Shown in pieces: positions 1 through 25,723 of a stretch of DNA of 25,723 nucleotides. Made by a program: the position numbers and the translations under genes. Numbering within the stretch: position 1 is the stretch's first letter; each line of letters opens with the position of its first letter. The notes below the pieces were generated by a model. It had not been told where the DNA came from. It saw nothing but the letters and a program-made list of their open reading frames with translations, and searched no databases. The stretch is from a virus. The stretch lies in IMG/VR virus record IMGVR_UViG_3300029394_000350, positions 1-25,723 of that record; one strand, written 5' to 3'.

Positions 1-1188
1 ATGGCAGGCATCATTAAACGCAACAACAAATGGGTGGCCGTCTTCCGCTCCCTGGACGGCAAAGAGCTTCGGAAAACCACCGGCATCGACGTGGTTCCCA
101 AGGCGCTGCTTCCGGGAGCCAATAAGAAATCAATCATGTCCCAGAATGAAGCCCGGGCGCGGCTGGTAGCCCAGGAGATGGAGAAAGAAGCCCGGTACGG
201 GGTTTTCGACCTGGACAAGGTGAAGGCCATTGCCGGGGACCAGGCCGGCGTGCTGAAAGCCACCATGAACGGCATGACGGTGACGCGGTTCCTTTTTGAC
301 TGGCTGGACGGGAGGAAAAACAAGAAGCGGGCCTATGAGCGGGACGGCATGGCCGTTCGCCGGCTTCTGGCGTTCCTGGGGGACCGTCGGAATATGCCGC
401 TGGCCGCCCTGAATAAAGGCATGGCGAAGGATTTTGTAGAAACGGAATTGGAGCGCGTTTCCGTCGGAACCGTCATCCGCTATGTGTCCACGCTGTCCAC
501 CGCGTTCAATGTCGCTGTAGACCGGGAGATCCTTTCCCGGAATCCGTTCCGGGGCGTCATGCCTTCCCGGGCGGACCACCAGGCGGAAAAGCAGCTGCGC
601 GGCGCCTTCACCATGGAGGAAGTCAACACCATCATTGAACGGTTCCCGGATGAATGGCCGGATCTGGTACGGGTGTGCCTCTACACCGGAGGCCAGCGCC
701 TCGGAGACCTGGCGACGCTGAAATGGGAGCAGGTTGACCTGAAGAACTCCTTTCTGTTCATGACCACGCAGAAGAGCCGGCGCCGCATGAACAAGCCGAT
801 CATCCATCCCTTGAAAGAGGTTCTGGAAAGGCGTCTGCTCAACCGGGTGAACGATTATGTATTTCCCCTGTCCGCGCTTCGCCATGCCCATGCCGGCGGA
901 CGTTCCGACAAGCTTTCCACGGAGTTCACGACGCTATTGAAAACGTACGGAATCATCCGAAAGATGCCCGGGGAAGTGAGAGGCGACCGGCACCGGCTTT
1001 CGGAAAAGAGCTTCCACAGCCTGCGGGCGACCGCCGTGACCGTCCTGCGCCTGGCCGGGGTGTCCCCGGATTTGTGCCGCTTCATCGTCGGCCACGACTC
1101 CGAAGAGATTGAACGGGTGTATTTCCGCCCGGATTCGGCGGACGTTCAGGAGGCCATGAGCAAGATTGCCGTCGGACTGGCCCGTTAG
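1..1188 (+). CDS. int: Tyrosine recombinase / phage integrase (395 aa)
   Basis: Complete ATG..TAG ORF. Box I-like GQRLGDLATLKW, box II HSLRATAVTVLRLAGV (H-x-x-R) and GHDSEEIERVY (H ... catalytic Y) are typical of lambda-type integrases. Confidence 0.9.
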   Translation: MAGIIKRNNKWVAVFRSLDGKELRKTTGIDVVPKALLPGANKKSIMSQNEARARLVAQEMEKEARYGVFDLDKVKAIAGDQAGVLKATMNGMTVTRFLFDWLDGRKNKKRAYERDGMAVRRLLAFLGDRRNMPLAALNKGMAKDFVETELERVSVGTVIRYVSTLSTAFNVAVDREILSRNPFRGVMPSRADHQAEKQLRGAFTMEEVNTIIERFPDEWPDLVRVCLYTGGQRLGDLATLKWEQVDLKNSFLFMTTQKSRRRMNKPIIHPLKEVLERRLLNRVNDYVFPLSALRHAHAGGRSDKLSTEFTTLLKTYGIIRKMPGEVRGDRHRLSEKSFHSLRATAVTVLRLAGVSPDLCRFIVGHDSEEIERVYFRPDSADVQEAMSKIAVGLAR

Positions 1189-1985: not shown

Positions 1986-4127
1986 TTAAGCTGGTCCGTA
2001 GGGGTAGAAGGTGCCTCCGAAGACGGGTATCTGGATCATTCCCAGCGCGTACTGCGTCACCTGATCATCTTCGATGTCGGCTATCTGGAAAGAATAGTCG
2101 AAATTGACGCCAGGCTTTTTCTCTCCGAGCCTGATAGGATAGACGGTCCCCGGGATGCCCGAGACGTCAACGCCCGTCAATTTGGCGTCCTGGTCAAAGT
2201 GGACGTTGAGCCATACTTCCCCGCTGGTTTGGGGGATAGTCACCCAGGAAGAACCGGAACCGCCCCCCTGCGGGTATTTGCCGAGCAGCGAGCCGTTCAG
2301 GTAGAGCGCGCCGGGCTTCATCTGCGCCCCGGTGATGGCTCCCTCCGTATCTTTCTGCAAGCGCACTTGGAAGCCGTATTCCGGCGCGGGCGTGGATTCT
2401 CCCGTGGATTTGGTGATGTGCTGGCTGATGGTGGGGGATTCCGGCTTGGGGTCAAAGCCGTATTCCGTCGATTCCGGCGCCCCCTGCATGTTTTCCAGCG
2501 TGGAAGATGTGCGCGAGGTGGCATTCACGCGCTTCAATTCTACCCATTCTTCAATCCCTAGTTGTTCCGGCGCGCCGTAGGAAAGGGAAATCACGTTGGT
2601 TTGCAGGTCGCGGCTCACCGTCTGAATCATGGTGTTGATGTTCTGCCAAGCGGGGTTTCCTCCCAGCAGCGAGACGCGCCGGCCAATGTATTGGCGCGTC
2701 TGCGCTTCGCCAAGCGCGACAAAGGAAATAGATCCGTCCCACGGCAATTCCTGCATGGATTCCCATACCGTTTTGGCAATGTCCCCATAGGGCACTCCCT
2801 CCGATGGTTGCGGCGATTCCCCTTCTTCCGGCCCGTTGGAGGGCTGTTCCCCGTTGTAGATGCCGTCAATGGGGTAGCTCGCGTAGGGGCGGTCCATGGT
2901 GACCAGATCCACCGAGAATTCTTCCCAGAAGCAGGGCACGCCTCCCAGCGTTCCCACATTTTTGAATTTCTCCCTCCACTTGGCAGGCGCGCTTTCCGGG
3001 ATGGCGAGACGCTGCTTGACGGTAGCGTTGCACCATTGCGGCCTGATGGATTTCGTGTGAATCTGCCCGTCCGTCAGTTCATAGCCTGTAGCGGAGGTGT
3101 TGTAGCCTTTCGGATTTTCCTCCGCTCCGTCCCAGGGCTTCCCGGTGATGGTCGGGTCCTTGTCATAGACGGCAATGGAACCTACATCTTTCATCCACGG
3201 GAAATGACGCTCCCAGAAACTCTTGATCATGTCGTTCTGGTTAATTTTCCGCCCCCTTACTTTCATGCGCTGGTAGGACAGGCTGCCGGCCCGGGTGCCC
3301 TGCACCGGCTGCGGATCTTCTACCGGGGAACCGGTAGAACTGTATTTAGAATAGTAGAAGTCTACTGACGTCCGGTAAACGATGGAGTGCGGCAAGGTCG
3401 GGTCCCCGTCTTCCGGGTATTTGGACAGGTAGGAGACGCGGTAGCCGTTGCTTCCGGTGGTTTCTGCGACGATAGCCACGCAGGGAGGCACGAGGTCGCC
3501 GCGTGGGACCAGGGAAACGTCCATGGCTTTAATCTCGCCGGATGGCTGCAAGGGAAGCGAAATGGGCGTCAGGGCGTCATAGTCCGTGATGATGAGTTTG
3601 GGGCGCGCGCCGCTGTAGTCATAGTAGGAAACCATGCGGGGCGACCAGCGGCGGATGGATTGAAGGAGGCTGCCAATCGTATCACAGGAGGCGTTCCACG
3701 GAATCAGCATCTTGTCATCGCTGATGCGTAGTTCGTAGTCCGCCGGGTGATGCTTGGCTAGGTTCAGCACTCGGGAGAGCGCGGCGGAAAGGCTTATCTT
3801 CGGAATGATGCCGCCCCCGCCGCTGACTTTATTCCACATGGAAAAGACCGGCTTCCATTCGGAATCCAGGGCAAAGCAATGTTCCAGCCAATACCAGGGA
3901 TCGGAAAAGACGATTTTCCACGCACGGGAAGAGCCGCTGTAGGTCTTTTCGATGCTGGAAACGAGGCCGGATAGAATGGTGTTCCCGTTTTGGGAAATGG
4001 TGACAGTATCGAACTGTTGGAAGGGCAAGACCTCCCCCAGCGTTCGCACGGGATAAACCGCGGTGATGGCGGAGGCGGAAAAGCTTTGCTGGTCGTGGGT
4101 CAGGCTGGACGGCTTGAGCGCCAGCAA
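1986..4127 (-). CDS. Large tail-tip / baseplate (host-specificity-like) structural protein, 713 aa
   Basis: Long ORF (TTG start in the track) downstream of the tape-measure-like gene and last in the late operon. The frame is open 17 more codons upstream to the TAA at 4179-4181. Size and position fit a distal tail/tip protein, but I recognise no specific motif. Confidence 0.5.
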   Translation of the reverse strand: MLALKPSSLTHDQQSFSASAITAVYPVRTLGEVLPFQQFDTVTISQNGNTILSGLVSSIEKTYSGSSRAWKIVFSDPWYWLEHCFALDSEWKPVFSMWNKVSGGGGIIPKISLSAALSRVLNLAKHHPADYELRISDDKMLIPWNASCDTIGSLLQSIRRWSPRMVSYYDYSGARPKLIITDYDALTPISLPLQPSGEIKAMDVSLVPRGDLVPPCVAIVAETTGSNGYRVSYLSKYPEDGDPTLPHSIVYRTSVDFYYSKYSSTGSPVEDPQPVQGTRAGSLSYQRMKVRGRKINQNDMIKSFWERHFPWMKDVGSIAVYDKDPTITGKPWDGAEENPKGYNTSATGYELTDGQIHTKSIRPQWCNATVKQRLAIPESAPAKWREKFKNVGTLGGVPCFWEEFSVDLVTMDRPYASYPIDGIYNGEQPSNGPEEGESPQPSEGVPYGDIAKTVWESMQELPWDGSISFVALGEAQTRQYIGRRVSLLGGNPAWQNINTMIQTVSRDLQTNVISLSYGAPEQLGIEEWVELKRVNATSRTSSTLENMQGAPESTEYGFDPKPESPTISQHITKSTGESTPAPEYGFQVRLQKDTEGAITGAQMKPGALYLNGSLLGKYPQGGGSGSSWVTIPQTSGEVWLNVHFDQDAKLTGVDVSGIPGTVYPIRLGEKKPGVNFDYSFQIADIEDDQVTQYALGMIQIPVFGGTFYPYGPA

Positions 4128-4178
4128 GTCATTGATGGTGATGTCGTGGTTCCTGCTGCTTGTAAAATGGTTAGTGGT

Positions 4179-8388: not shown

Positions 8389-8973
8389 TTACTGGTTGAT
8401 ATAGTCCTTCACCCCTTCCGCAATGGCTTCGGCAATGCGGCCGGGATGGTCCTTCAAAATAGAGGCGTTTTCAGGATTGGTGATGAAGCCGCATTCGCAC
8501 AGCACCCACGGGCAGCGGGTCTTTTTCAGGACGGCGAGGCCCGGGCGCGACTGCACGGTGTTGGCCCGTCCGGGCAGCAACCGGGAAAGAGGTTCCGCGA
8601 TGCATATGGCAAGCCGGCTTCCTTTAACGCTTCCCGGGTAGAAACATACATGGGCGCCATGCGGAGCAGGATTTGGAACGTAAATGAGTTCCTTTCCTTC
8701 GTCTGTTTCAACCGTTTTTTCGGTGCTCGCGCTGTCGCAATGCAGGGAAATGCCGAAGTCATAGCCTCCTTCGTTGGCGACCTTGACGGTGGCGTTCAAG
8801 TCCTGGGAATTGGTCATCTTCGGAAAGTCAATCACATCCACCCGGGCTCCCAGCCGTTCCAGCATGGGGGCGAGGCGTTCGGCGATCGTCGCCGCGACGG
8901 CGTGTTCTTCAAGCCCGTTCCCGCGGGCCCCGGTGTTGTTGGCATGGCCTATATCAATAGCTATTTTCCTGAT
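8389..8973 (-). CDS. N-acetylmuramoyl-L-alanine amidase (Amidase_3-type) endolysin; start codon non-canonical or lost
   Basis: The ORF track begins at ATG 8865, but the same frame is open up to the TAA at 8983-8985. That extension encodes IRKIAIDIGHANNTGARGNGLEEHAVAATIAERLAP, the conserved Amidase_3 N-terminus with the Zn-ligand His and Glu. Downstream are HCDS and the ECGFITN-type motif. There is no in-frame ATG/GTG/TTG upstream of 8865, and AAAGGAG sits just 5' of in-frame ATA/ATC codons. Confidence 0.8.
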   Translation of the reverse strand: MRKIAIDIGHANNTGARGNGLEEHAVAATIAERLAPMLERLGARVDVIDFPKMTNSQDLNATVKVANEGGYDFGISLHCDSASTEKTVETDEGKELIYVPNPAPHGAHVCFYPGSVKGSRLAICIAEPLSRLLPGRANTVQSRPGLAVLKKTRCPWVLCECGFITNPENASILKDHPGRIAEAIAEGVKDYINQ

Positions 8974-9290: not shown

Positions 9291-9614
9291 TTATTTCTTG
9301 GAGGGGATGACCTGCACGACGGGCGGAACATCCGTAACAGGCTGGGCCTGACTGTAGGAGATATGTCCCGGTTCCAGCACCAGGCAGGAACCGTCCTTGC
9401 ATACCACCGTCTTTTCCGGCGTCACGTCCACGGAATGACCGCAGCCACCCAGCAGAGCGGAAGCCGCATAGGCAGCACCTGCTAGGACTACCCACAAAAG
9501 GCGTTCCCACCACTTCAGGCCGGTTTTAGTTTTGCTTTTTTCGTAGGCATCTTTCATGCCCTGCTTCCCCGCCTCAAGGGCGGCCTGCTTTTGCTCGTCA
9601 CTTAATTTACTCAT
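9291..9614 (-). CDS. Membrane/lipoprotein-like small protein (o-spanin or holin candidate), 107 aa
   Basis: ATG at 9614 overlaps the stop of the upstream gene (ATGAGTAA). Hydrophobic stretch LLWVVLAGAAYAASALLGGC ends in a lipobox-like LGGC, followed by a Pro-rich 49-aa tail. The N-region is unusually long for a signal peptide. Confidence 0.45.
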   Translation of the reverse strand: MSKLSDEQKQAALEAGKQGMKDAYEKSKTKTGLKWWERLLWVVLAGAAYAASALLGGCGHSVDVTPEKTVVCKDGSCLVLEPGHISYSQAQPVTDVPPVVQVIPSKK

Positions 9615-10017
9615 GGTTTTGCTTTGTGAAGTATTTGAAAAAATCCACGGCGGCAGGGTCGGTAACAATGAACTCCGGGTAATCACGGGAAGTGAACACC
9701 CTCCGCCCGCCCTGCGGATTGACGGCCTCAACGGTCAGTTCCACGGCTTCCTCCGTCCGCATCGGGTCATCCTCCTCCGGAGCGTAAAACTCTTTCAGCC
9801 GTGCCCACACCTGCACCGCCTGCCAGTCCTCACCCATGCCCACCAGCGCGGCAACTACGGCGGCCATTGCCGGGGCATGGTCCGCTGGTATCTCGTCCTG
9901 CGTATAGCGCGCCGGAGGTCTATATCCGCCCTTGTCCTGATAAATGGGCGTCAGAGTGAATTCCTGCCATGTTCCAGGCTTCGGAAACTGAATTTGTATT
10001 TCTGCGTCGTTCATCAT
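9607..10017 (-). CDS. Hypothetical protein, 136 aa (possible fibre-associated/assembly protein by position)
   Basis: Its ATG overlaps the fibre stop (TAATG). No recognisable motif. Confidence 0.5.
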   Translation of the reverse strand: MMNDAEIQIQFPKPGTWQEFTLTPIYQDKGGYRPPARYTQDEIPADHAPAMAAVVAALVGMGEDWQAVQVWARLKEFYAPEEDDPMRTEEAVELTVEAVNPQGGRRVFTSRDYPEFIVTDPAAVDFFKYFTKQNHE

Positions 10018-11951
10018 TAGAGAGGTATGTTAATGTCCACAAAATCTGCCGTTTCCTCGGATTCAATGGCATTCGTTCCTATCGCGTCCAACCCGTAGAA
10101 AAGCGGGTTGATATTCCCCGGCTGGTAATAGGCATATTCGCCGGGCCCGGCGTTAACGGCTGCCGTTCCGCTGGTGGTGTTGATCACGTCCGTCACCCAC
10201 CTGGAAATGCCGACGCCAGTCTCAAAATTGGAGACGCCGCGGCAGGTGGCAATTTTGTACAGGTTGTTGGTTTGCGCTCCCGTGACCATCAGCCATAGCC
10301 CTCCCAGGTTTTCATAAACGCTGCTGCTGGCAACCGCCTGCTGCTGGTAAATAATCTTGCAGACCGTCCACGGGATGGGTTCGTTATGTGCCGCAGGAAT
10401 AAAACTGGTCGTCGTCTTGACCTGCCACCCATCCGTGGAATTGAGCGCGTAAATCTCACGTACGCGCACCGTATAGCCGTTGCGGGCCGTGTCTCTCACA
10501 TTGTCAAAGGTGATGTCCAGAATCTCCCCGAAATTAAAGGCCAGGCCATTGCCGGGAATAATCGTGTAGGAATCCGTGGTCAGGTCCGTCCTGATTGTTT
10601 TCGCTCCGCGCCCGAAGCCCATCGTCACCTTCGCGGCTGCAGTGGATCTCCAGACAAACGAAAAGCCGGCCCAGGAAGAGTAATTCCATTGGGAAGAGGG
10701 ACCTTCAAAGGGAGCCTGAATGGTGGTGTGAGCTCCCGCGGGAATACCGATGCGGGCCATCTGCCAGGGAACCGTTTTAGTAATTGTCGCCGTCCCGGTC
10801 GTGGTCAGGGAGTCCGTATTCAGAAACGCGGCTGCCGTATAAATATTGGACGCACCTCCCATTCCCGCGGCATAAAGCCGGTTGACGCCGGATTCGCTGG
10901 TGGGAGCGCCCACAGCCAGCGGGACATTGATCCCGCCATTGGCGTTGACGGTGCTTGAAAACGTGGACGCCCCCGCGCAGTTGAAGCTGGCGCCCTGGGA
11001 AATATTCAGGATGCCGGATTCTACCATGAATGTCCCTCGCAGCCAGCCGCCCGATTGGAGATCAACGGACTGATAAAACCGGGTGATTCCGTAAATCTGG
11101 TTCAGGGTCCCGGCGCTTCCGCTTCCGTCCGGGTTGTTGACGACCAGAGGCCCGTTGATAGTAGCCGATTCAGCGGTCAGGGCTCCCCCGATGTTGACGT
11201 CGCCGACGTTGGACGTCAGCGTCCCGGGCTCTCCCTTTTCCCCTTGTAGTCCCTGGGGTCCTGCCGGACCTTCCGGGCCCTGGGGGCCCTCCGGGCCTTG
11301 AGGCCCCGCCGGTCCTGTATCTCCCTTCGGTCCCTGCTCCCCGGTTTCGCCCTGCGGCCCGCGTTCCCCGGTTTCGCCGCGTGGACCTTGCGGCCCTTCG
11401 GGGCCGGTTTCTCCACGTTCACCCTGCGGGCCTGACGGTCCCTGAGGACCAACATCCCCGCGGGGAATCGTGAAATTGAGCAGATAGGATCCCACTTCGG
11501 ACCCCTTGACGGCTTCCGCGTTGGCGGGCGTCCCCGGTTCCCCGGTGGTGACCTGACCCACGGACAGATTAAAATTCTCGGCGTACTTTTTGGCCTGCTC
11601 CGCGTACCAGGCGGCGCTGGACGCGTTGTCAAGCATGACCTGCACGCATCCGCTTCCTTCCGGCAGCTGCACGACGACCGCGCCCGCCACGGCCTGCTGT
11701 TCGTCCGGCAAGTCAGGCGTTACACGGCCCGCAGAAACAAAGCATCCGTAGAGCAGCGGTCTTTCCTCGTTTCCGTCGTCCATGAAGACGTCGTAGGACC
11801 ACCTGCCCGCAGGCACCGAAGCCCAGGAAAGCACGCCGTTACCCTCATCGTCGCGGGAAAAGCCGAACTCGGCGACGCCTGTCTTGAGACGGACAGCGCC
11901 GCGGAGGGTGACGCCGTTCATGTCGACGGGATCCCCCTGAAAATCTACCAC
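10017..11951 (-). CDS. Collagen-like tail/side fibre protein (644 aa from the GTG in the track)
   Basis: 26 uninterrupted G-X-Y triplets ([19 protein letters not shown]...GEKGEPG) flanked by a beta-rich N-domain and a ~400-aa C-terminal domain. The coding signal appears to continue upstream of the GTG ([17 protein letters not shown]). Confidence 0.85.
11226..11459 (-). repeat. Collagen triple-helix (G-X-Y)x26 coding repeat
   Basis: Counted directly from the translation, residues 165-242 of the fibre ORF. It generates shadow ORFs in the other frames. Confidence 0.9.
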
Positions 11952-12034
11952 ACGGACGACCAGCGACTGGTTCAGCCCCGTGACGGTCCGGATATCGTAT
12001 TTGCCTGCCTGCTGCCTGGGAAAAAAGAGGATGC

Positions 12035-12053
12035 GGGGGCGCAGCGCGCCCCC
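12035..12053 (-). promoter_or_regulatory. GC hairpin 12 nt downstream of the UGA of the 196-aa gene
   Basis: Minus strand: GGGGGCGC-GCU-GCGCCCCC, a perfect 8-bp stem. UUUUUU begins only 8 nt after the stem, so it is not a canonical intrinsic terminator. Confidence 0.6.
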
Positions 12054-12065
12054 TGGTGAAACGCG

Positions 12066-12656
12066 TCAGGAACCCGGAGTCGGCGTCACGTCCTGCACAT
12101 TGGAGGGCGTGAACTGGTACTTGCCGCGGTAATCCATTTCGAACTCGAACTGTGGTGAAGCAATCGCCGTGGTGTGCTCAGGGTCCTGCAGCAGGCGCAA
12201 GGCGCCATGCGCCGTTCCGACCAGATAGATCGTGCCGACGTCGTTTTGGTACCAGAAATGAAGATACCCTTCGATCTTGTTGTCGCCGCCATGTCCGACG
12301 GTGGTCGATTCCTCGCCATTAGCGGGAGGCGCTCCCAGGGCGAAAGACAGCTGGAACCATTCGGGAGACATGTCCGGCGTGGTGAAGGTCATCCGCTTTC
12401 CGGTCGTCGTGTTCTTGCGCTGCTGGCGATATCCCAGCGCGCCGCCGTAAAAGCGCGTTACTTCCCCTTCGACCTGGGTGGCAACGGATTGGAAAGCCCC
12501 CAAAAGCCCGAAACTCACCCAGGGCTGTTCAGGCCCGGCTGTCGGATCGGCGGGCGGAGCCGTGGGAGGCGTCGGAAACTGGTCCGGTCCGGTGACGTAA
12601 GAAGCTCCCTCGTCTTCGGTCACTTTGATGCCGTCGGGGAGGAAAATCGCCAGCAC
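12066..12656 (-). CDS. Virion structural protein, possibly major tail (tube) protein, 196 aa from GTG
   Basis: ORF follows the connector/neck genes and precedes the fibre. The frame stays open upstream of the GTG (ATTYEPTFTNRNVTPQITG...). It ends in TGA-C. Function is assigned by position only. Confidence 0.4.
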   Translation of the reverse strand: MLAIFLPDGIKVTEDEGASYVTGPDQFPTPPTAPPADPTAGPEQPWVSFGLLGAFQSVATQVEGEVTRFYGGALGYRQQRKNTTTGKRMTFTTPDMSPEWFQLSFALGAPPANGEESTTVGHGGDNKIEGYLHFWYQNDVGTIYLVGTAHGALRLLQDPEHTTAIASPQFEFEMDYRGKYQFTPSNVQDVTPTPGS

Positions 12657-12730
12657 GCCGGTAATCTGCGGCGTGACGTTGCGGTTCGTGAATGTGGGTT
12701 CGTATGTAGTTGCCCTGGTGCTTGAAATGG

Positions 12731-12928
12731 TTAGTAGATGATGGATGCCTTGCCGTCGGCTTCCAGTTTATCAGCGAGTTCTTTTGTAGCACGGATGCGC
12801 GCCCCTTTCAAGAAGGTTGAGCGCCCTATCCTCACTTCTTTGGCGAGAATGAGAATGTTCGTGTCGATGACGGCGGCCTGCTCCGTCTTCTTCTCCGGTT
12901 CGGTGTTGGCTGCAGTTGCTTTGCTCAT
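12731..12928 (-). CDS. Hypothetical small virion-module protein, 65 aa
   Basis: Its ATG overlaps the upstream stop (ATGA). No motif recognised. Confidence 0.45.
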   Translation of the reverse strand: MSKATAANTEPEKKTEQAAVIDTNILILAKEVRIGRSTFLKGARIRATKELADKLEADGKASIIY

Positions 12929-13188
12929 TTGATGTCAACGAGGTTGAGGGTGGACAGAGCTTCCGCGACGGGCGCGGGAAGTTCCGGGGTGTCGGTTTTC
13001 ATGGAGAGGCTGAGAACCAGCCCTCCGTCCAGTTCGGTGCGAGTGCGAATGACCCGCACGGCCTTCTTGTCAGTTGTTTTCTTCTTTTCGTCCGGTGCGG
13101 ACGGCGTTTTGCCGGCGGTTTCGGAAGATTCGTCCGGCTTCGGGGCGCTCTTCCGCACGGCCTTCTTGTCAGTTGTTGATGTGTTCAT
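12925..13188 (-). CDS. Hypothetical basic/disordered small protein with internal duplication, 87 aa
   Basis: ATG ORF. TTDKKAVR occurs twice 33 residues apart, encoded by an exact 25-nt repeat. Confidence 0.45.
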   Translation of the reverse strand: MNTSTTDKKAVRKSAPKPDESSETAGKTPSAPDEKKKTTDKKAVRVIRTRTELDGGLVLSLSMKTDTPELPAPVAEALSTLNLVDIK

Positions 13189-13696
13189 TGAATTGCGGAT
13201 GGTTTCTCATGTTAATATTAACCGGGACACGGTAATCCACGGTCAAAACGTTCATTTGCCTCTTCTCGCCGTCAATGATGGCGGAGGAGGAAAAACGGCC
13301 TTTGATTTTGGGTTTCATCATCGCCGGTGCGGAAAAGGGAAGAGGATTCCAGTTCCACAGGGCTTCTTCAATCACGTCCCCCACCGCCCGAAGATAATAA
13401 TCAGGCGTCAGGCATGCCGCCGGGAACAGGGATGCGTTGTGATAAATGGAGGCGATGATGAAATACTGACGCCACATCGTCGGCGCTTCCGTTTGTCCGT
13501 TCCCGTCCTGGTATTCTGCCGCGTCCCCGGGGCACACCAAAACGACGCCGTTGTTTCCCATCGCCGACATGATGATGTCATTGGCGGCGTACTGTGGGTC
13601 GAAGGGCCGTTCGAAGATGTGACAGTTCAGCGCTCCCAGGTTCTTCAGGCGCTCAATGATGCGCCGGCACATGGTCTGGTCGATGGAGGGGATCAT
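13169..13696 (-). CDS. Neck/tail-completion-position protein (Mu gp37/DUF1834-like by position), 175 aa
   Basis: Best start is ATG 13696, overlapping the upstream TGA (ATGA). The track's longer 13801 start overlaps the previous gene. The family call is weak. Confidence 0.45.
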   Translation of the reverse strand: MIPSIDQTMCRRIIERLKNLGALNCHIFERPFDPQYAANDIIMSAMGNNGVVLVCPGDAAEYQDGNGQTEAPTMWRQYFIIASIYHNASLFPAACLTPDYYLRAVGDVIEEALWNWNPLPFSAPAMMKPKIKGRFSSSAIIDGEKRQMNVLTVDYRVPVNINMRNHPQFNEHINN

Positions 13697-14358
13697 GGTT
13701 CGTTTCCGATGTTGGCAAGGTAGGTTTCCGCGGCGCGCTGCGCCATCCGGTCCATCGTCGGGAGAATTCCCGGCGTGGGCGGGATCGTGACTTCGCGGCA
13801 CAGCACGTAGAGCACGTCGCCCGTTCTGGCTCCCTGGCGGAACAGTTTGCGGGCCGCTTTCTTTCCGGTGGCTGATTGCGCCGTCTTGAGGATGAGGACG
13901 CCGGTCACATTGCCGTTGCGTCCTCCGTTCTTGGAGGGGATGAATTGCAAGTCCTCTTTGCGGAAGCCGGCGCTGTAAATGCTTCGGGCCCCGCCATGGC
14001 CGCGGGGGGCGTTGATGGTGGGGATAGCCAGGGCCCGGATCGGGTTCCCGGTGATTTCCGAGGTGCGCCCCGTGGGGCGAAGCGGCCCGCCCAGATAACC
14101 CTGCGTGCCGATCCAGTGAAGACCGATGCCGCTCCAGGCGATGGAGACGCTGACGCCCTCGGCGGTTTCTTCCATGGTCGTGGCGTCCGCCGCGCCGTCG
14201 TAGTAGTCCTTGCCCTGCTGGCGCAGGGTTTCCTGAATGAGCAGGCTCAGGGCGACGCCGGCCTTGCGGATGGCGGTTTTGTGCCGGGCCGCGGACGGCT
14301 CCATGTCGGCAAACGCCCGGTCAATCTCGGACTGGTCGATGTGGACGGTTACAGCCAT
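13693..14358 (-). CDS. Hypothetical virion morphogenesis/neck protein, 221 aa
   Basis: ATG ORF overlapping the upstream stop by 10 nt, within the head-tail joining block. Confidence 0.45.
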   Translation of the reverse strand: MAVTVHIDQSEIDRAFADMEPSAARHKTAIRKAGVALSLLIQETLRQQGKDYYDGAADATTMEETAEGVSVSIAWSGIGLHWIGTQGYLGGPLRPTGRTSEITGNPIRALAIPTINAPRGHGGARSIYSAGFRKEDLQFIPSKNGGRNGNVTGVLILKTAQSATGKKAARKLFRQGARTGDVLYVLCREVTIPPTPGILPTMDRMAQRAAETYLANIGNEP

Positions 14359-15485
14359 TTGGAGGGTAAAACGTAAGGGGTGGGCAGTTCCACGCGGAGA
14401 GCTCCGGCAACGTCTTCCACTTTCTTGACGTGCCCGGAGGTAAGGCGCCAGGTGAATTCCCCCTCTTCCTTCCGGGATACGTGGATATACTGGCGGGAGG
14501 ACGCGGCGGCCACGTCTGCGGGCCGGGCGTACCAGACGCCTTCCGGCTCGGAGGACAGGCGGTCCAGCAGGCGGTCCAGGTAGAGGGCCGCCAGCGTTCC
14601 GGCCACGGCTCCCCCGGCTGCCGCCAGGCGGAAGGCCTGGGCCTGCCGCAAGGGGATCTCTTCCGGGAAATCCCCGGACAGGACTTCCGCCAGTTCCGCG
14701 TCCGTGTAAGGGCGCGTGCCGTTCGGGTCCGTGTAGGTAAAGGTGGTATCGCCGTCGTTCCCGGTCTTGACGCGCACGGCGTCTTTCAGGATGCGGCGGA
14801 TCTTGTTCCTGTTGGATTCCGTCACGCCTTTGGCGTTGCTTTCCAAGGTGGCGTTGAAGCTGGCGGGAGCGGGACGGACGCGCGACACGTCCAGACCGGC
14901 CGCGCGGGCTTCTTCGGCGCCCACGGGGGCAATGTTCATGCCGGACAGGTAGTCAAAGGGCGGGTAAGGCGTGCCGAACCGCGAGAGACGCACCCAAATA
15001 TCGGAGGCCGCCAGTGCATAGCCGACAGTTTCTCCGCGGATGAAGCCGGATGATACCGCTTCCGTGGCTTCTTCTTCCAGTCCGACCCGGGCACGGTTCC
15101 AGCGTTCGGCCCAATAGCGCGGGTCTTCCCGCCCCTGGGATCGGTAAAATTTGAAGGCGGCCGTGTCTTCGTCCTGAGTCCAGTTGTACCAGTTCCGGTA
15201 GCCGTGGGCCATGGCCGCGTTTGTTTCCATAACAACCTGGATGCGGACCCAGGAGGACAAATCCTGAATGCCTCCCTGCCCCGTCGCCGGGGGGCGGTAA
15301 CCCTGCTGGCGCAGGGTTTCGCGGATGGCCCGCTGCGCTTCCTCGTAGCTCAAGGCCCCCGAGGCGACCTGGGACGCCTTGTCCTCAAAATCGGACAGGA
15401 TGACGCCGGGTTCCACCCCGGACACGAAGAAGGCGCGTTCGGCGTAGTCGTTGGCAATCATCTCCATTTGGGCGGCGGTCATCAT
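14349..15485 (-). CDS. Virion/head-morphogenesis-associated protein, 378 aa (weak Mu F / SPP1 gp7-like features)
   Basis: Start taken at ATGATG 15485/15482, overlapping the upstream TGA (ATGATGA). The track's 15704 start would overlap the previous gene by more than 200 nt. The family assignment is tentative. Confidence 0.45.
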   Translation of the reverse strand: MMTAAQMEMIANDYAERAFFVSGVEPGVILSDFEDKASQVASGALSYEEAQRAIRETLRQQGYRPPATGQGGIQDLSSWVRIQVVMETNAAMAHGYRNWYNWTQDEDTAAFKFYRSQGREDPRYWAERWNRARVGLEEEATEAVSSGFIRGETVGYALAASDIWVRLSRFGTPYPPFDYLSGMNIAPVGAEEARAAGLDVSRVRPAPASFNATLESNAKGVTESNRNKIRRILKDAVRVKTGNDGDTTFTYTDPNGTRPYTDAELAEVLSGDFPEEIPLRQAQAFRLAAAGGAVAGTLAALYLDRLLDRLSSEPEGVWYARPADVAAASSRQYIHVSRKEEGEFTWRLTSGHVKKVEDVAGALRVELPTPYVLPSKWL

Positions 15486-15977: not shown

Positions 15978-16718
15978 TTAATCGGCGGAGGCCGTCGCGT
16001 CGATGCGGACGATGGCGCTGGGGTTCGTCAGCTTGGTCAGCGAGTAGACGCGGTTGGTGACGAGCGTCAAGGCCGGCGTCGGCTTGTATTCAGTGATGAC
16101 TTCGCGGCGAAGCTTGCCGGAAAGCCCGAAGGTTTTGACGGCGGAGGCGTCGAACTGCGTCGGGGAGTCTTCCTTGTACAGGACGTAGACTTCGTTTTCC
16201 ATGATGGTTTTCGCGTCGCCGGAAGCGTCGCGGTACGGCATGGAGGCGATGTAAATATCCCGGATGGGCCGGATCAGAGCCATGCGAAGCAGGTCTTCAT
16301 TGAACAGGCCGACGCTGTTGAAGGAAACCACCTGACGCGCCAGCGGATTGGATCGAAGCAGCTGCCATGCGTTGACGCCGAAGACAATCGTGGTCGGGAA
16401 GTGTCCGGTTGCGGCGTTGATGGACAGGATCGCCTTGTCCAGCTGATCCAACGGGTTTTTCTGCGGGTTGGCCCAATCGCCCATGCCGGAAGCGGCCGGA
16501 AGCTGGCTCATCAGCAGCTTGGCGCGCTCATATTCGTAGGACGTCACAAACTGTGATTCGATGAGTTTGTATTCCGCCAGGGCGATGGCCTGCGCCTTTT
16601 CCAGGTTGACGCCCAGCAAAGCGTCCGGTATGGGCAGCGTCAATCCGTAACCCTGAAGGGTGTCTGTTTCGTTTCTGCCGCGCAGGACGGTCTGGCGGGG
16701 AGGTTCGCCCGGCCCCAC
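15978..16718 (-). CDS. Major capsid protein (lambda gpE-like / Mu-like head), at least 246 aa; true N-terminus probably upstream
   Basis: It follows protease/scaffold and the DUF2190-like gene, as in gpC-D-E type head modules. The track starts it at GTG 16718, but the frame is open for 71 more codons, to the TAA at 16932-16934, filling the otherwise empty 220-nt gap. Confidence 0.65.
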   Translation of the reverse strand: MGPGEPPRQTVLRGRNETDTLQGYGLTLPIPDALLGVNLEKAQAIALAEYKLIESQFVTSYEYERAKLLMSQLPAASGMGDWANPQKNPLDQLDKAILSINAATGHFPTTIVFGVNAWQLLRSNPLARQVVSFNSVGLFNEDLLRMALIRPIRDIYIASMPYRDASGDAKTIMENEVYVLYKEDSPTQFDASAVKTFGLSGKLRREVITEYKPTPALTLVTNRVYSLTKLTNPSAIVRIDATASAD

Positions 16719-16938
16719 CTGGATGGGCTGGACGGTGAAGGCCGATTCCGTGTCCCAGACCTTGTACTGGAAATTCAGGTCATAGACCGGGACGATCGGA
16801 GCGATGCGGCTGATGATGGAGTTCTCTTCGGTGTTGCCGGACCCCGCGGAATAGGAGGTCAGGACATCGGTGAACTGAACGGCGGAGCAAAATGGAGTAG
16901 CCCTTGTTCTTGGTCTTTCTGTTGGTTGGGGTTAATAG

Positions 16939-17392: not shown

Positions 17393-18505
17393 TTAACGTT
17401 GGGCGGAGACGATGAAGCCCTCTTCGGTCGCCTTCTGGTAGGCGTCATAGCGCTTCATGCCGTCCTTGATGAGTTCGTTCACACGGTTGTTGATTCCGTC
17501 AATGGATTCCTTCTTGCGGAATGGGTCAGGGGGATTCAGGGTCGCGCGGCGGTTCAGAGGCGTCCTTTGCGGAAGCTTCTTCTGCTCCGGCTGCTCCTGT
17601 TTCTGCGGGCCCGCCTGGCGGTTGAGCGCGCGGATAAAGGCGTTCAGTGCGGCGGGGCTTTCCCGGAGAGAGTTTTTCAGCTCTTCCCGGCGTTCTTCCG
17701 TGAATTCCTCGCGTTCTTCCTCGTCCAGCGCGTTTTCGTACGTGCTGACGGCGTCGTCCACTTCGGCGTTCACGTGGTCTTTCTCACGCTTTTCCAGCGA
17801 GAGCAGTTCATCAAGTCGTCCGAGGATCGCCCTGCTCATGTCGTCGGTGCCGTCAAATTCGACATCCAGCTTGTCAAGCAGGGAATCGAACAGGGCCCGC
17901 TGGGCCTTGTCCATTTCCTTGGACGGATATTTTCTATCGTCGTTGTCCATATTGGTGTTCTGGGTTGTTTCCCCCTCTTCGGGGCTTTTGTGTTCGCCCC
18001 CGGCCTCGTCGGAGGCGGGGGAAGTCTGTCGGTTGACCAGAGGCCGCTTTCCCTTGATGCGTGGACGGTTGGTCAGGGCAAAGCCGGTCAGGCGCGAAGG
18101 ACGGTAGACCCCGTCCGACAAGGTCATCCCTTCGCCATATTCGGTGGATGATTGCGTGTATTCCTTGTCCTGCAGCATCTTTAGGCCGCGCGGCGTCCAT
18201 TCGATGAAGCCGTAGAGTTCCAGCGTGCCGGAAGGGTCGCGGTAGGTGTCCAGCCTCTTGAGCCATCCGAGGGCCCGAGTATCGCGGGAAAGGTCGTGGC
18301 TCAGGTGGTCGCCGTCGATGAGCATGCCCGGGCCGTCAAAGGTGCGGGCGTTGAAGTCGTCCACCATGTCCTGGATCGCCTGCTCGTCGACGCGCAGCAC
18401 GGCGGGTCCTTCGCCGTAGTCGACGTCATGATCCCCGCTCTTCTCGACGTGGAACCAGCCGTTGGCGGGTTGGGAGAGGTCATTGATTTGTTTCGTACTG
18501 ATCAT
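17393..18505 (-). CDS. Mu gpI-like prohead protease fused to an acidic scaffold-like C-terminus, 370 aa
   Basis: N-terminal GWFHVEKSGDH ... LIDGDHLSHD ... ALGWLKRL ... LYGFIEWTPRGLKMLQDKEYTQSSTEY follows the Mu I protease pattern. The C-terminal half is E/K/R-rich and coiled-coil-like. It overlaps the portal 3' end. Confidence 0.7.
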   Translation of the reverse strand: MISTKQINDLSQPANGWFHVEKSGDHDVDYGEGPAVLRVDEQAIQDMVDDFNARTFDGPGMLIDGDHLSHDLSRDTRALGWLKRLDTYRDPSGTLELYGFIEWTPRGLKMLQDKEYTQSSTEYGEGMTLSDGVYRPSRLTGFALTNRPRIKGKRPLVNRQTSPASDEAGGEHKSPEEGETTQNTNMDNDDRKYPSKEMDKAQRALFDSLLDKLDVEFDGTDDMSRAILGRLDELLSLEKREKDHVNAEVDDAVSTYENALDEEEREEFTEERREELKNSLRESPAALNAFIRALNRQAGPQKQEQPEQKKLPQRTPLNRRATLNPPDPFRKKESIDGINNRVNELIKDGMKRYDAYQKATEEGFIVSAQR

Positions 18506-19745
18506 CGGTAAATCCTTTCATGAGTCCGGCGTAAATCATTTGCTGAAGCTGCTCGTAGGCGTCGGGCGGAATGAGCGCTTTTTCCGGTTCCCTGTTGGCC
18601 GCCGCCGTCACCGGAACGGGTTCCTGCGTGCCCTCGATCGACATGCCGATCTTTTCTTCGATTTCGGTTTTCTCGGGGCGGACGCCTCCGTCCGCAAGCG
18701 CGGCAATTTCCTCGGCCTTCTGCAGCGGCGTCTGGACAGTGTCAAAAGTGATGTGGAGGCGGGCCAGCGGTTCTCCGTCTCCCAGGACAAGCGGGCTGAT
18801 GGCGGCGTTAAAAGCTTCGGCGACCTTGGAACAGACCGCGGAGACGACCGAATTCCAGCTGTCCGTGTGCGCTCCCCCGGCCAGCGTGCCGGAGCCTGAT
18901 TCATTCAGGACGGTCAGAGTGCCGGCCATGACAAACCGCACCTGGTCCTTGTCGGACATGTTGATTCGGGACAGGAAATAGTTTTCGTTGATGTTGGAGG
19001 CTTTCAACGGTTCGGCGGTGCAGCCGGGAGGAAGCACCATGGAGGCTCCCGATTTGAGTTCCTCACAGGCCCGTGCCAGCGCGTCCATGACGGCGGCGCT
19101 CGCGTCCTTGGGCGCCGTGATGATGACCGGGGCGCTTCCGTAGCGGTCCATATGGTTATCCCACGTGATTTTCGCGTGGTTGCGCTCAAAAGAGGCGCGG
19201 GTTGCCGGAAAAAGAATGGGGTTCCGGTGCTCCATGACCACGAGCGTTTCTTCCTCTACGCTCTCGCCTGTGTCGACCCCGATGTAGCACTGGGGGTTGA
19301 ACTGCCAGTCGTTCAGCGCTCCGGGCCGCACCCAGTACCGCTGCGGGATGAATTCAAACCGGCGGCCCCAGGCGTCCTCAATGTATTGGAGGTGGGCGTA
19401 ACCGTAGAACATGCCGGAGGCCAACTGCCCAAAGGCCTGTTGAAGTCCGGTGACGGAGTGATAGAATTCTTCCAGCGCGTTTTGCTGACGCTGGGCTTCG
19501 GGGCTGTCGTCCGCGGCGTCAATCACCCATCCCTGCATGGAGACGCTTTCAATGAGTCGGGAATAGAGCATGCCCAGCAAGCCGTCCGAGTAGATGACCT
19601 CGTCCCAAATGAGCATTTGGCGGGCAAAGGCTCCCCGCCGCGCTTCGTTCCGGGCGTCAATCAGGGTTTGCAGGTCGGCGCCCTGCAACGGATCCCAATA
19701 TTCAAACCATTGGGGCTGGTTAGGCTTCCTGCTCTGTTCCGTCAA
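18480..19745 (-). CDS. Portal protein (DUF935 / Mu gp29-like), 421 aa from TTG
   Basis: Size, its position after terL and before the protease, and overall family resemblance. The track start is TTG; the frame is open 63 more codons upstream. Confidence 0.7.
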   Translation of the reverse strand: MTEQSRKPNQPQWFEYWDPLQGADLQTLIDARNEARRGAFARQMLIWDEVIYSDGLLGMLYSRLIESVSMQGWVIDAADDSPEAQRQQNALEEFYHSVTGLQQAFGQLASGMFYGYAHLQYIEDAWGRRFEFIPQRYWVRPGALNDWQFNPQCYIGVDTGESVEEETLVVMEHRNPILFPATRASFERNHAKITWDNHMDRYGSAPVIITAPKDASAAVMDALARACEELKSGASMVLPPGCTAEPLKASNINENYFLSRINMSDKDQVRFVMAGTLTVLNESGSGTLAGGAHTDSWNSVVSAVCSKVAEAFNAAISPLVLGDGEPLARLHITFDTVQTPLQKAEEIAALADGGVRPEKTEIEEKIGMSIEGTQEPVPVTAAANREPEKALIPPDAYEQLQQMIYAGLMKGFTDDQYETNQ

Positions 19746-19980
19746 GGCTCGCCGGGTGAGTTCCGTTTCAAGCTCCTTGATTCTGGTCTCCTGTTGGGCT
19801 ACCAGCTTCGGGGCGTTGAGGATATTTTTGACGGCGTTAAACCTGAGGCAAAGAAAAGGTGGTTGCAGGGGAAGGAGTTGGACCTTCGATTCAGGGACAG
19901 GAACCCCGCGTGATACCGTTTCACCACCCTGCGATTAATTACATATCTTCATATATTGATACGTTGATATATTGTCAACC

Positions 19981-21327
19981 CTAATATCTCCCGTAAGCGC
20001 GTTTTGATGACACGGGCCGGGCGTACCAGGCTCCCAGCGTCCGCGCCAGTCCGCTGTTCCGGCGCGCGTGCCAGGCCATCACAAGGGCGTCGGCCCGGTC
20101 GGGGGAACGAACGCCCCGCTTTGCCATATCTTCCTTGCTTTCAATGCGGACGCGGCCTATTGCATCCGTCTGGAGCCGCGGCGCGACCAGCTGTTCAATC
20201 GTGTCCTCGTCAATGTCGAGGATGAGTTCTTTTTCCTCAATGGCGCGCGCCAGGGCCCGCCATGCCTGGGCTCGCAGATTGACAAAGGCTTGTGTGTCAT
20301 CCGCCGGAAACCCGCCGCGGTAGGAGTGCACCGGAAAGCCCTCGGCGCGGAAGTCATCAATGATGGGGAGCCCTAGGCCGTCGCCGTCGGCAAAGATGCG
20401 GTCGGCAGAGATGCCGAGTTCGGCGGCCTTCCGGCGGAAACGTCCGCGCGCTCCTACGGTGTCCGGGTCGGACCAGTGGTCGGCGATGAAAAAACGGTTG
20501 CCCTGCCCGGCCGCAAAGACGTTTTCATCGCCTCCCGCGGCAAAGTCGAAGCCGCCGCAGGTCTCTCCGGTGTCCAGGAAGGGAGGCGGGTTGTTGACCA
20601 GCTCCATGAGAGCGCGGCGGGAAATGACGGATTGTCCGTCAAGGTCGGTGAATTCACCAAGGATGGCCGAGCGGTAGAAGGAGGACTGCTCACCATATTC
20701 TTTCTTCAGGCGTTCGGCCTTGCCCGGGTCGTTGATTTCAATGTGCGGGCAATCCTCGTATTTGACGCGGATTTTGTAGTAGAGCGATGAATTTTTGTGA
20801 AAGCAGTCGTAGAAGGTGCCGGAATCGGCGCCCGGCGACGAGGTGATGAACGCGTGAAAGAGCGTGCAGCGGGAAACGGCGGTGAAGATGGAGTCCGGAA
20901 TGGTTTTGGCCTCGTCCAGGACGTAAAAGACAGGATCCACGTCGGGCGAGATTTTTGGATGCCATCCTTCCGCACGTCCCGCGTTGTCGGTGGAGAAACC
21001 CACGGCAAAGCCTCCCTCCGGCGTGCGGATCTCCGTCTTGTTGAAGGTCCAGCCGGAAAAGAAAGGATTGTCCATGTAGCGGCGGAGCGCGGGAAAGAGC
21101 TGCTTTTCCACCTGCATCCACGATGAGGACGTAACGGGGACCTGTCCCCGCGGAAAACAGGTGAGAAAGTACAGGATGGCGGGAGCGATGCAGTTGCTTG
21201 TCTTGCCGGATCCGTTAGGAGCGACCAGAGCCACGCTTTTCCCTCTCAGGGTCAGCTTGCCCAGGGACAACGCCTTGATGGCCTCCACCTGCCATGGATA
21301 GGGGTCAAGGCGGAGGATATGGCGCAA
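19981..21327 (-). CDS. terL: Terminase large subunit, 448 aa
   Basis: Walker A VAPNGSGKTS, Walker B-like VLDEAKT, a C-terminal nuclease-type acidic region (DGDGLG ..., SPDRADAL) and the N-terminal PYPWQ motif. TTG start in the track. Confidence 0.9.
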   Translation of the reverse strand: MRHILRLDPYPWQVEAIKALSLGKLTLRGKSVALVAPNGSGKTSNCIAPAILYFLTCFPRGQVPVTSSSWMQVEKQLFPALRRYMDNPFFSGWTFNKTEIRTPEGGFAVGFSTDNAGRAEGWHPKISPDVDPVFYVLDEAKTIPDSIFTAVSRCTLFHAFITSSPGADSGTFYDCFHKNSSLYYKIRVKYEDCPHIEINDPGKAERLKKEYGEQSSFYRSAILGEFTDLDGQSVISRRALMELVNNPPPFLDTGETCGGFDFAAGGDENVFAAGQGNRFFIADHWSDPDTVGARGRFRRKAAELGISADRIFADGDGLGLPIIDDFRAEGFPVHSYRGGFPADDTQAFVNLRAQAWRALARAIEEKELILDIDEDTIEQLVAPRLQTDAIGRVRIESKEDMAKRGVRSPDRADALVMAWHARRNSGLARTLGAWYARPVSSKRAYGRY

Positions 21328-21360
21328 GAAGAAGCTGACGGGGATTCGTGTCCTGACGGG

Positions 21361-21876
21361 TTAGGGATGGAGTTTGCCGGCGATGGTTTCCAGAGCGGTT
21401 TTCTCGTCTTCCTGCAGCTGGGCGAGCTGCTCAGGGTCCAGCGTGATTTTCCGTTCCAGCGGCGCTCCGGGAACGCCGGCGACGTCCTGACGGACCCGGT
21501 CTCCGAATTTATCAGGAGCGAAGCGGGCGGCGACTTTCAGCCGGGTTTCAATGGCGAGCTTCTTCGCGGCGACGGAGGCGGAGCCGCATTCCGGGTCAAG
21601 GGCGACTTTCGCGGCTTCGTCGGCCAGCTCCTGGCAGGCGTCAATCATAGCTTCCGACTGCGCTTCCCGCGCGCGTTGAATGAGTTTGGAAAACTCCGGC
21701 TTTGTTTCACGCCAGTTCCAGACCGTCCAGACCTCCGGCATGTGGTCATCGGAGCAGATGGATTTCATGGTTTCCCCGTCGGCCAGGCGGGAGGCTATCT
21801 CGGCAGCCAGTTCCTCTGTGTAGAGGCTCGGCCGCCCCGGTTTTCTTTTGGTGGTAGGTTTATTTTTCCTGCGGTT
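21361..21876 (-). CDS. terS: Terminase small subunit (HTH type); the conserved N-terminus has no in-frame start (frameshifted or recoded)
   Basis: The ATG ORF (21361-21768) starts at MKSICSDDHMPEVWTVWNW. The same frame upstream encodes KPGRPSLYTEELAAEIASRLADGET, the hallmark N-terminal HTH of this terS family. That frame is closed by TAG at 21877-21879 with no ATG/GTG/TTG in between. Confidence 0.75.
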   Translation of the reverse strand, partial: NRRKNKPTTKRKPGRPSLYTEELAAEIASRLADGETMKSICSDDHMPEVWTVWNWRETKPEFSKLIQRAREAQSEAMIDACQELADEAAKVALDPECGSASVAAKKLAIETRLKVAARFAPDKFGDRVRQDVAGVPGAPLERKITLDPEQLAQLQEDEKTALETIAGKLHP

Positions 21877-25613: not shown

Positions 25614-25723
25614 TTGCCCTCCTTTCCGTCCGCCAGGGTTTCCCCCACCTGGGCGGGTGCGTTTTCCAGCGAGTTATGCGGATTCACATCCGTGTTCTCC
25701 CCCGCGGCGTCCGCCGTGTATTT
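25610..25723 (-). CDS. 3' end of an upstream minus-strand ORF (37 codons, truncated by the window edge)
   Basis: Open frame from the window edge to TGA 25610-25612 (...NAPAQVGETLADGKEGK*), overlapping the methyltransferase start. Confidence 0.4.
   Translation of the reverse strand, partial: KYTADAAGENTDVNPHNSLENAPAQVGETLADGKEGK

Follow-up and report, generated by a model that had tools for sequence, protein, structure and literature searches.

The AUU codon of infC is a natural non-canonical start and is read by the normal tRNAfMet. Initiators with amber and GAC/GAA anticodons reportedly came earlier from the RajBhandary and Schulman laboratories, and recoding of stops by phages (in crAss-like, Lak and other gut phages, where TAG is read as Gln and TGA as Trp) is said to have been described by Ivanova in 2014 and by Borges and Peters in 2022. 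Streptomyces sigR, with a GTC start, is a further natural example that uses the normal tRNAfMet (PMC5472188). Initiation at AGG occurs in wild-type cells only at a low level and under the control of IF3 (PMC6868393). Of 12 engineered pairs of initiator tRNA and start codon in Escherichia coli, the one that joins the anticodon CCU to AGG performed best in all strains tested, with increases of 35- to 402-fold (bioRxiv 10.64898/2026.04.16.719103). Our search of open-access full texts and bioRxiv returned engineered non-AUG initiator tRNAs only and found no natural phage tRNA(CCU)/AGG initiation. Here we analyse a 25,723-nucleotide (nt) stretch of viral DNA, referred to below as the window (IMG/VR record IMGVR_UViG_3300029394_000350, positions 1 to 25,723), which is the late region, or most, of a temperate Akkermansia phage with Mu-type head genes. 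AGG is very likely the start codon of eight late genes in the window, among them a collagen-like tail fibre gene, and, as the comparison of relatives indicates, is probably read by a phage-encoded initiator-type tRNA with the anticodon CCU.

The original prediction for this DNA concerned the junction between the fibre gene and the gene upstream of it, here called p216. It proposed read-through of the upstream UGA into the fibre, with initiation of the fibre at a non-canonical codon as the alternative. Its description of the letters is accurate throughout: the upstream open reading frame (ORF) ends in TGA (12068..12066, minus strand) with C as the next base, the fibre ORF as listed opens at GTG 11951 on the same strand and in frame with it, stops and the triplets ATG, GTG and TTG are all lacking from the intervening 38 codons (12065..11952), and an 8-bp hairpin with a displaced U-tract follows the stop. 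Its suggestion that coding begins upstream of the GTG holds for the last 22 of the 38 codons and fails for the first 16, which are non-coding spacer, and it is the alternative that our analysis supports, the codon being AGG 12017..12015. The cause proposed here, an initiator-type tRNA(CCU) encoded 7.8 kb away and serving eight genes, is outside the scope of that prediction.

To establish where the fibre begins, 36 IMG/VR relatives of the upstream gene were fetched and the junction was aligned, with spacer counts taken over 43 related loci. The AGG does not vary across 42 loci, and insertions and deletions (indels) occur immediately upstream of it. Codons 2–22 after the AGG are free of gaps, and their variable columns fall at 19 third, four first and two second codon positions. 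GTG 11951 is not conserved, being GTC, ATT or CTG in relatives, and no canonical start was found in the fibre frame of any AGG-type relative. In two members of a sister lineage described below (L065 and L086), the codon that aligns with the AGG is ATG, and the protein reads M-S-T/I-P-A-L-Y-N-I-K-T-L/V-T-G-L (MSTPALYNIKTLTGL). To judge from these alignments, purifying selection on the fibre protein begins at the in-frame AGG; the listed fibre ORF is 22 codons too short, and the interval 11949–12068 is the p216 TGA, a 48-nt non-coding spacer with a hairpin, and the first 22 fibre codons. The fibre itself matches Pfam Collagen (E = 4.7e-15) and tail-fibre PHROGs.

A stop-to-stop ORF scan for 5' stretches devoid of ATG, GTG and TTG finds eight ORFs without a canonical start, and all eight have an in-frame AGG where coding begins (Table 1), in a genome in which AGG is rare within genes (31 of 7148 codons). 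Starts of the portal, large terminase and major head protein were also surveyed in 60 further human-gut metagenome loci. The AGG is invariant across relatives at seven of the sites, and the sequence upstream is variable or unrelated. The portal has it in 25/25 viral and 57/57 metagenome loci, with a leader of variable length; the large terminase has it in 20/20 viral and 49/49 metagenome loci, and the major head protein in all 55 metagenome loci. At the small terminase the AGG is likewise invariant, although the sequence upstream is unrelated between relatives. The in-frame stops two codons upstream of both terminase AGGs leave almost no alternative start.

Protein profiles place the beginning of the domains close to these codons. 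Read from the AGG, residue 5 of the small terminase aligns with position 3 of phrog_1482 and residues 17–128 with positions 1–105 of Sf6_terminase; residue 13 of the major head protein aligns with position 14 of phrog_1005; and residues 3–188 of the amidase cover positions 1–173 of Amidase_3. Initiation at the first canonical codon would remove 35–60 residues of these domains (about 35 domain residues for the first ATG of the amidase). In the leaders of these eight genes G is scarce, and U and C are abundant; those ahead of the portal, p216 and p722 AGGs resemble the fibre leader.

The upstream gene, p216, is itself one of the eight. The original prediction gave it 196 aa, having missed the true start; read from its AGG the gene has 216 codons. 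This AGG is invariant in 45 loci, with indels just upstream, and the orthologues in L065/L086 and P0063 begin MATTLSP(D/E)YANRNVSPQITG, which matches (AGG)ATTYEPTFTNRNVTPQITG residue for residue. Searches of Pfam and PHROG gave no match to p216, and an AlphaFold2 model from a six-sequence alignment is unusable (mean predicted local distance difference test score 30.5); the label 'tube' given to its product earlier finds no support. Its homologues are confined to this phage family. A 65-aa ORF fills the apparent 208-nt gap upstream of p216, and tblastn matches run upstream of the p216 AGG because the C-terminal coding sequence of this ORF is conserved.

A sister lineage (L065, L066 and L086), reached through a portal homologue of 60% identity, serves as a natural control. 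It is syntenic, encodes an integrase and has a GC content of 43%, as against 54–58% in the window's group. No tRNA was found in it, and all of the genes in question start canonically, six of them at exactly the aligned codon (Table 1). Of the other two, the large terminase has an ATG two codons from the AGG position and the small terminase has a longer N-terminus that is not directly comparable. The orthologues of these six genes start canonically at the codon that is AGG in the window, and coding constraint on the fibre begins at that codon.

Intermediate states are found among tRNA-bearing relatives. L096 has AGG at the portal, p216 and the fibre, and ATG at the large terminase and the major head protein (MANLFYSAVQFTDVL); L097, a 3.9-kb contig, has AGG at the portal and ATG at the large terminase. 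The large-terminase ATG of L096, L097 and L065/L086 lies within one or two codons of the AGG position. The amidase start is polymorphic within the tRNA-bearing lineage, the same codon being AGG in ten variants (the window included) and ATG in eight. AGG starts thus number one on the short L097, three on L096 and seven to eight in the window's group, and this difference between sub-lineages, together with the polymorphic amidase, suggests a spread still in progress, through which the tRNA becomes indispensable. Avoidance of CATG restriction sites was considered as a driver of the ATG-to-AGG change and rejected, CATG being not avoided (123 observed, 95 expected).

The tRNA gene, which ARAGORN labels tRNA-Arg(CCT), has an acceptor end with a C1×A72 mismatch, G2:C71, C3:G70, A73 and an encoded CCA, the same as that of E. 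coli metZ and unlike that of argW. The base of its anticodon stem in the window is GGG:CCC (G29–G31:C39–C41). A 1×72 mismatch allows formylation and excludes a tRNA from EF-Tu, and the G:C pairs of the stem allow acceptance by the P site and by IF3. Alignment of 21 distinct variants of the phage tRNA gives a cloverleaf that is 95% paired, with compensatory changes at nine pairs; position 1:72 is unpaired in 21/21, while pairs 4–7 covary. G2:C71 is present in 20 of the 21 (one has G:U), and C3:G70, G30:C40 and the anticodon CCT in all of them. Since the anticodon is CCU in every copy, where tRNAfMet has CAU and carries methionine, we call the tRNA initiator-like and not a tRNAfMet. The identity rules used are those of E. 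coli and may differ in Akkermansia.

AGG starts co-occur with this tRNA, which is absent from the ATG-only lineage. All 24 IMG/VR relatives retrieved with its 5' half carry an intact copy, as do L037, L096 and L097 and 55/57 metagenome relatives. An IMG/VR probe with a canonical initiator anticodon arm carrying CCU (CGGGCTCCTAACCCG) returned nine matches, none of them a tRNA, and an IMG/VR probe for the L097-type arm returned no match. A genome scan with the 5' half of the tRNA found only tRNA-Gln genes (in Thermomicrobia, Elusimicrobia and others) and no Akkermansia species-representative genome.

Table 1. Features of the window at the fibre junction and at the eight genes with a proposed AGG start, with flanking landmarks. 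N-termini are given as read from the AGG in the window and as found in the tRNA-less sister lineage.
Feature	Coordinates	Strand	Proposed AGG start	N-terminus, window	N-terminus, tRNA-less lineage	Remarks
Integrase	1..1188	+				
722-aa late gene (p722)	1986..4154	-	4152..4154	(AGG)NHDITINDLLALKP	MTHDITINDLLALKP (L086)	L037 has AGG, L086 has ATG
Endolysin amidase	8389..8970	-	8968..8970	(AGG)KIAIDIGHAN	MRIAIDIGHAN	AGGAGA leader, the sole Shine-Dalgarno-like one of the eight
Collagen-like tail fibre gene	10017..12017	-	12015..12017			666 codons from AGG; AGG lies 48 nt past the TGA, in frame
Non-coding spacer, p216 to fibre	12018..12065	-				48 nt: 12-nt linker, hairpin, GCATCCTC, T6, CCC
T-run (U6)	12021..12026	-				In pyrimidine-rich leader abutting the fibre start
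GC hairpin	12035..12053	-				8 bp, perfect, 3-nt loop (GGGGGCGC-GCT-GCGCCCCC); begins 12 nt past the stop
p216	12066..12716	-	12716..12714	(AGG)ATTYEPTFTNRNVTPQITG	MATTLSPDYANRNVSPQITG	216 aa; TGA 12068..12066
65-aa ORF	12731-12928	-				ATG 12928; stops 12 nt before p216 AGG
Major head protein	15978..16904	-	16902..16904	(AGG)ATPFCSAVQFTDVL	MPNNFCTAVQFTDVL	First ATG/GTG/TTG 61 codons further in
Portal	18480..19844	-	19842..19844	(AGG)FNAVKNIL	(TTG)IKTLKNLF	AGG 15 nt past tRNA
tRNA, anticodon CCU	19860..19933	-				Between large terminase and portal; ARAGORN, and Rfam tRNA at 50.8 bits
Large terminase	19981..21354	-	21352..21354			In-frame TAA two codons upstream
Small terminase	21361..21870	-	21868..21870			In-frame TAG two codons upstream
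DNA methyltransferase ORF	25143-25723	-				First start GTG 25613

The strongest competing explanation takes AGG as a weak near-cognate start for the host tRNAfMet and the phage tRNA(CCU) as an elongator tRNA-Arg whose role is to supply a rare codon. Rare-codon tRNAs are frequent in phages, the ARAGORN label agrees with such a role, and there are 31 internal AGG codons for it to serve; wild-type E. coli, too, initiates at AGG at a low level (PMC6868393). We nevertheless regard this explanation as unlikely. It would leave eight essential, highly expressed late genes dependent on very weak initiation, and it does not account for the occurrence of AGG starts only where the tRNA is present, the tRNA-less lineage using ATG or TTG. 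Internal AGG use is 0.43% with the tRNA and 0.52% without it, and use no higher in its presence argues against a codon-supply role. The tRNA shares the CCU anticodon with an elongator tRNA-Arg(CCU) such as argW, which has a fully paired acceptor stem and A37, but lacks the Watson–Crick 1:72 pair, A20 and A37 of that type, and the C1×A72 mismatch kept in every variant is an initiator signature that disfavours EF-Tu binding.

Several features of the tRNA nevertheless weigh against its being an initiator that reads AGG. Its D-arm is of the tRNA-Gln/tRNA-Asn type, with U11:A24 in 21/21 variants and not the A11:U24 of initiators. Two of the three G:C pairs at the base of the anticodon stem are less than invariant, G29:C41 being A:U in two of the 21 variants and G31:C39 being U:G in two others (each is G:C in 19/21). 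At position 37 most variants have G and a few have U or A, where tRNAs that read ANN codons usually have A. The T-loop is UCCAACU in most variants, with C55 for the usually invariant U55 (L056, L096 and L097 have the usual UUCAAYU, and L096 also lacks G19, its D-loop being AACGCUA). The D-loop AACGGUA places U at position 20. A20 is the main determinant for E. coli ArgRS, C35 and U36 being determinants as well, so that without A20 the attached amino acid is uncertain. In the metagenome contigs L114 and L131 the tRNA beside the portal is cut by an insertion, and the portal (in both) and the major head protein (in L131) still begin with AGG. A promoter scanner found no promoter upstream of the tRNA, and in this one genome, where the fibre is in frame with p216, low-level read-through may occur.

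The interrupted copies can be described further. Only the last ~12 nt of the tRNA (...CCCCTGCAACCA) are left beside the portal (L114:3368-3537 and L131:4831-5000), preceded by at least 3.5–5 kb of AT-rich foreign DNA with ERCC4-nuclease and GYF_2 ORFs and a 696-aa protein. By its sequence, the insertion resembles a mobile element that has entered the tRNA gene, and the persistence of AGG starts in both contigs leads us to expect an intact tRNA copy at the far junction. About 15 nt upstream of the tRNA in the window (19934–19985) stand TTGACA, a 17-nt spacer and TATATG, which the scanner does not accept; the tRNA-less lineage has TTGACA-17-TATGTT at the same place. The idea that G37 pairs with the base before the start was also considered and is not convincing: C precedes seven of the eight AGGs, but it also precedes the amidase ATG variants, and in L097, whose tRNA has U37, A and U stand before the start codons.

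Programmed read-through of the p216 UGA, aided by the hairpin and yielding a p216–fibre fusion in a fraction of ribosomes, is very improbable as an explanation of the junction. The window and 16 other loci do have the two genes in frame without an intervening stop, UGA-C is kept in 35 of the 36 relatives, and 12 nt beyond the stop a stable hairpin begins. A fusion of about 879 aa, as originally envisaged, could however be made in only these 17 of the 43 loci (three of 13 spacer variants); the conservation of the frame among relatives had been named beforehand as a check, and in 26/43 loci the fibre is out of frame or the link is stopped. A stop occurs 7–79 codons past the TGA in 23/36 relatives. 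In the window's genes, 17.5% of in-frame 38-codon stretches are devoid of ATG, GTG and TTG, and 59% of off-frame 16-codon stretches are devoid of stops, which with a factor of 1/3 for a shared frame gives an estimate of about 0.2. The in-frame open link thus occurs at about the chance rate, and the coincidence is not statistically unusual. The 16 codons after the TGA vary as non-coding RNA does and not as codons do, with indels, a T-run of variable length and compensatory changes in the stem. The hairpin is as well conserved in out-of-frame relatives as in the others, and is found also in the sister lineage, where the two genes are in different frames and the fibre starts with ATG. The fibre needs a start of its own in most relatives, and the AGG supplies one.

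The hairpin has properties that fit a different role. The spacer occurs in 13 variants of 47–53 nt across the 43 loci, in all three length classes modulo 3, and the T-run comprises 6–9 T among relatives, a variation that shifts the frame of the fibre relative to the upstream gene. The hairpin is kept in 12 of the 13 variants, with loops of 3–5 nt, and a compensatory stem change from C:G to A:U is seen in L027 and L028; in two variants a TGA in the frame of p216 lies inside the loop. L065/L086 have a hairpin of unrelated sequence in the same position. The predicted fold energy of the spacer is about −18 kcal/mol, and that of the whole spacer is no better than that of shuffled sequences (z = 0.55), so that it is conservation and covariation that speak for the hairpin. 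Its conservation whatever the frame indicates a real RNA element and not a stimulator of read-through. A terminator scanner called no site on this strand, and an Rfam search found no family that matches the hairpin; an intrinsic terminator has a U-run 0–2 nt after its GC-rich hairpin, and here the 8 nt of GCATCCTC separate the stem from TTTTTT (12026..12021). The hairpin may act on the transcript, as an attenuator or by stabilizing the mRNA, and the U/C-rich tract is more likely part of the Shine–Dalgarno-less leader of the fibre. Neither would promote read-through.

Initiation of the fibre at some other non-canonical codon, such as ATC (Ile, 11993..11991), with the AGG serving as part of a purine-rich ribosome-binding motif, appears to us no less remote. 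AUU, AUC and AUA are known weak starts, and the purine-rich AGGCAGCAGGCAGG does lie 10–24 nt upstream of an in-frame ATC, ATA or ATT, but synonymous third-position changes (CAG/CAA, GCA/GCG, GGC/GGA/GGT and TAC/TAT) occur between the AGG and the Ile codon, the ATG of the sister lineage aligns with the AGG and not with the Ile codon, and seven further genes have AGG at the position of an orthologous ATG without any such motif. Stop-codon recoding with TGA as a sense codon, which the finding of several ORFs without starts led us to consider at first, was dropped, as TGA ends normal genes, the sole tRNA is CCU and the spacer after the TGA is non-coding.

The window as a whole is 88% identical in DNA to the unannotated Akkermansia phage DTMo-2021a. 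Its minus strand, taken in order of falling coordinates, encodes a DNA methyltransferase, a replication initiator, a DnaC-like loader, the small and large terminases and the tRNA, then the Mu-type portal, a Mu gpI-type protease/scaffold, the major head protein and several unassigned genes, and finally p216, the fibre, small lysis-region genes, the Amidase_3 endolysin and more large proteins. ATG starts are kept by the early genes (replication initiator and helicase loader) and by about two thirds of the late genes. The methyltransferase ORF matches phrog_954 only from profile position 51, and about 50 N-terminal residues seem to be missing; an in-frame TAA is present at 25676..25674, and the window ends at 25723. 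Two listed minus-strand ORFs (14349–15704 and 13169–13801) are overextended at their 5' ends and overlap their upstream neighbours by 100–220 nt; alternative starts at ATG 15485 (378 aa) and ATG 13696 (175 aa) abut the preceding stops and fit the sizes in L086 (381 and 171 aa). A small minus-strand ORF between the fibre-adjacent gene and the amidase (9291–9731; 107 aa from its ATG) has a lipobox-like LLGGC after a hydrophobic stretch, and its protein may be a spanin or a lipoprotein of the lysis cassette.

If the AGG starts are real, gene calling that admits only ATG, GTG and TTG cuts the major head protein, terminase, fibre and endolysin by 10–60 residues. The portal is recorded with at least ten lengths in public databases (352, 355, 359, 378, 385, 397, 414, 421, 454 and 474–493 aa among P0001–P0040 and P0059–P0067), some of the calls running upstream through the tRNA gene, and p216 is recorded as 126–242 aa. 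In one database record the element is entered as a plasmid of A. muciniphila (AKMU_P330). A systematic annotation error would thereby be exposed for this phage family. The phage is a common prophage of Akkermansia muciniphila, which lives in the gut and is of medical interest.

We propose that the phage tRNA would be aminoacylated, our best guess for the amino acid being arginine on account of C35 and U36, and probably formylated once charged. Excluded from elongation by its 1×72 mismatch, it would be placed in the ribosomal P site with CCU paired to AGG, and AGG would thereby become a fully cognate start for packaging, head, fibre and lysis genes. That the engineered CCU/AGG pair works makes this initiation step feasible. 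On these comparisons it is likely that a gut phage lineage has naturally expanded its start codons, with up to eight starts of packaging, head, fibre and lysis genes changed from ATG to AGG and the initiator supplied by the phage, as a natural form of orthogonal initiation. The pay-off is a matter for speculation: late genes that depend on the phage tRNA might be locked against leaky expression in the lysogen, or the arrangement might provide insulation from the host or act as a ratchet that makes the tRNA indispensable. If confirmed by experiment, this would be, as far as our search goes, the first natural case of a virus adding a start codon and, if the proposal is true, the first natural reassignment of a start codon by a dedicated initiator tRNA. 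Start-codon identity would then be rewritable by a virus, in parallel to stop recoding in gut phages.

Several known systems resemble parts of this arrangement. The hairpin recalls the intrinsic terminators and attenuators that follow phage structural genes, with a GC-rich stem just past the stop, a U-rich tract after it and a conserved place, behind a structural gene and ahead of a fibre gene of lower abundance; it differs in the distance of 8 nt between stem and U-run and in a U/C tract that abuts the next start, as in the leaders of the other AGG genes. The coat read-through product A1 of phage Qβ shares with this genome the UGA, the open in-frame stretch and the nearby hairpin, but here neither frame nor openness is conserved, the segment after the stop is non-coding and the fibre gene is provided with a start of its own. 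Like infC and sigR, the AGG genes have no canonical start and are missed by annotation pipelines; those are single regulatory genes whose weak near-cognate pairing is policed by IF3, whereas here eight highly expressed genes share a single codon, to which the anticodon of a dedicated tRNA is fully complementary. By analogy, the closest natural counterpart is stop-codon recoding by phage suppressor tRNAs, at the other end of the gene. There, too, a phage tRNA alters translational punctuation, the altered signals are concentrated in late structural and lysis genes of gut phages and gene callers mis-annotate these genes; in the present phage, by contrast, the signal is a start and not a stop, AGG keeps its sense meaning at 31 internal codons and the tRNA is initiator-like and not a suppressor. 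The proposed mechanism is shared with the engineered initiator tRNAs of E. coli, the metY/tRNAfMet anticodon mutants, which likewise combine an initiator-type body, a changed anticodon and a complementary non-AUG start. The phage tRNA, known from its sequence, has a body that is not a mutated tRNAfMet, with its Gln/Asn-type D-arm, U11:A24 and G37, and it differs also in being natural, phage-encoded, conserved across many gut metagenomes and associated with eight native late genes. If our proposal is true, it would be the natural counterpart to engineered orthogonal initiation, with the same CCU/AGG pair that is best in E. coli.

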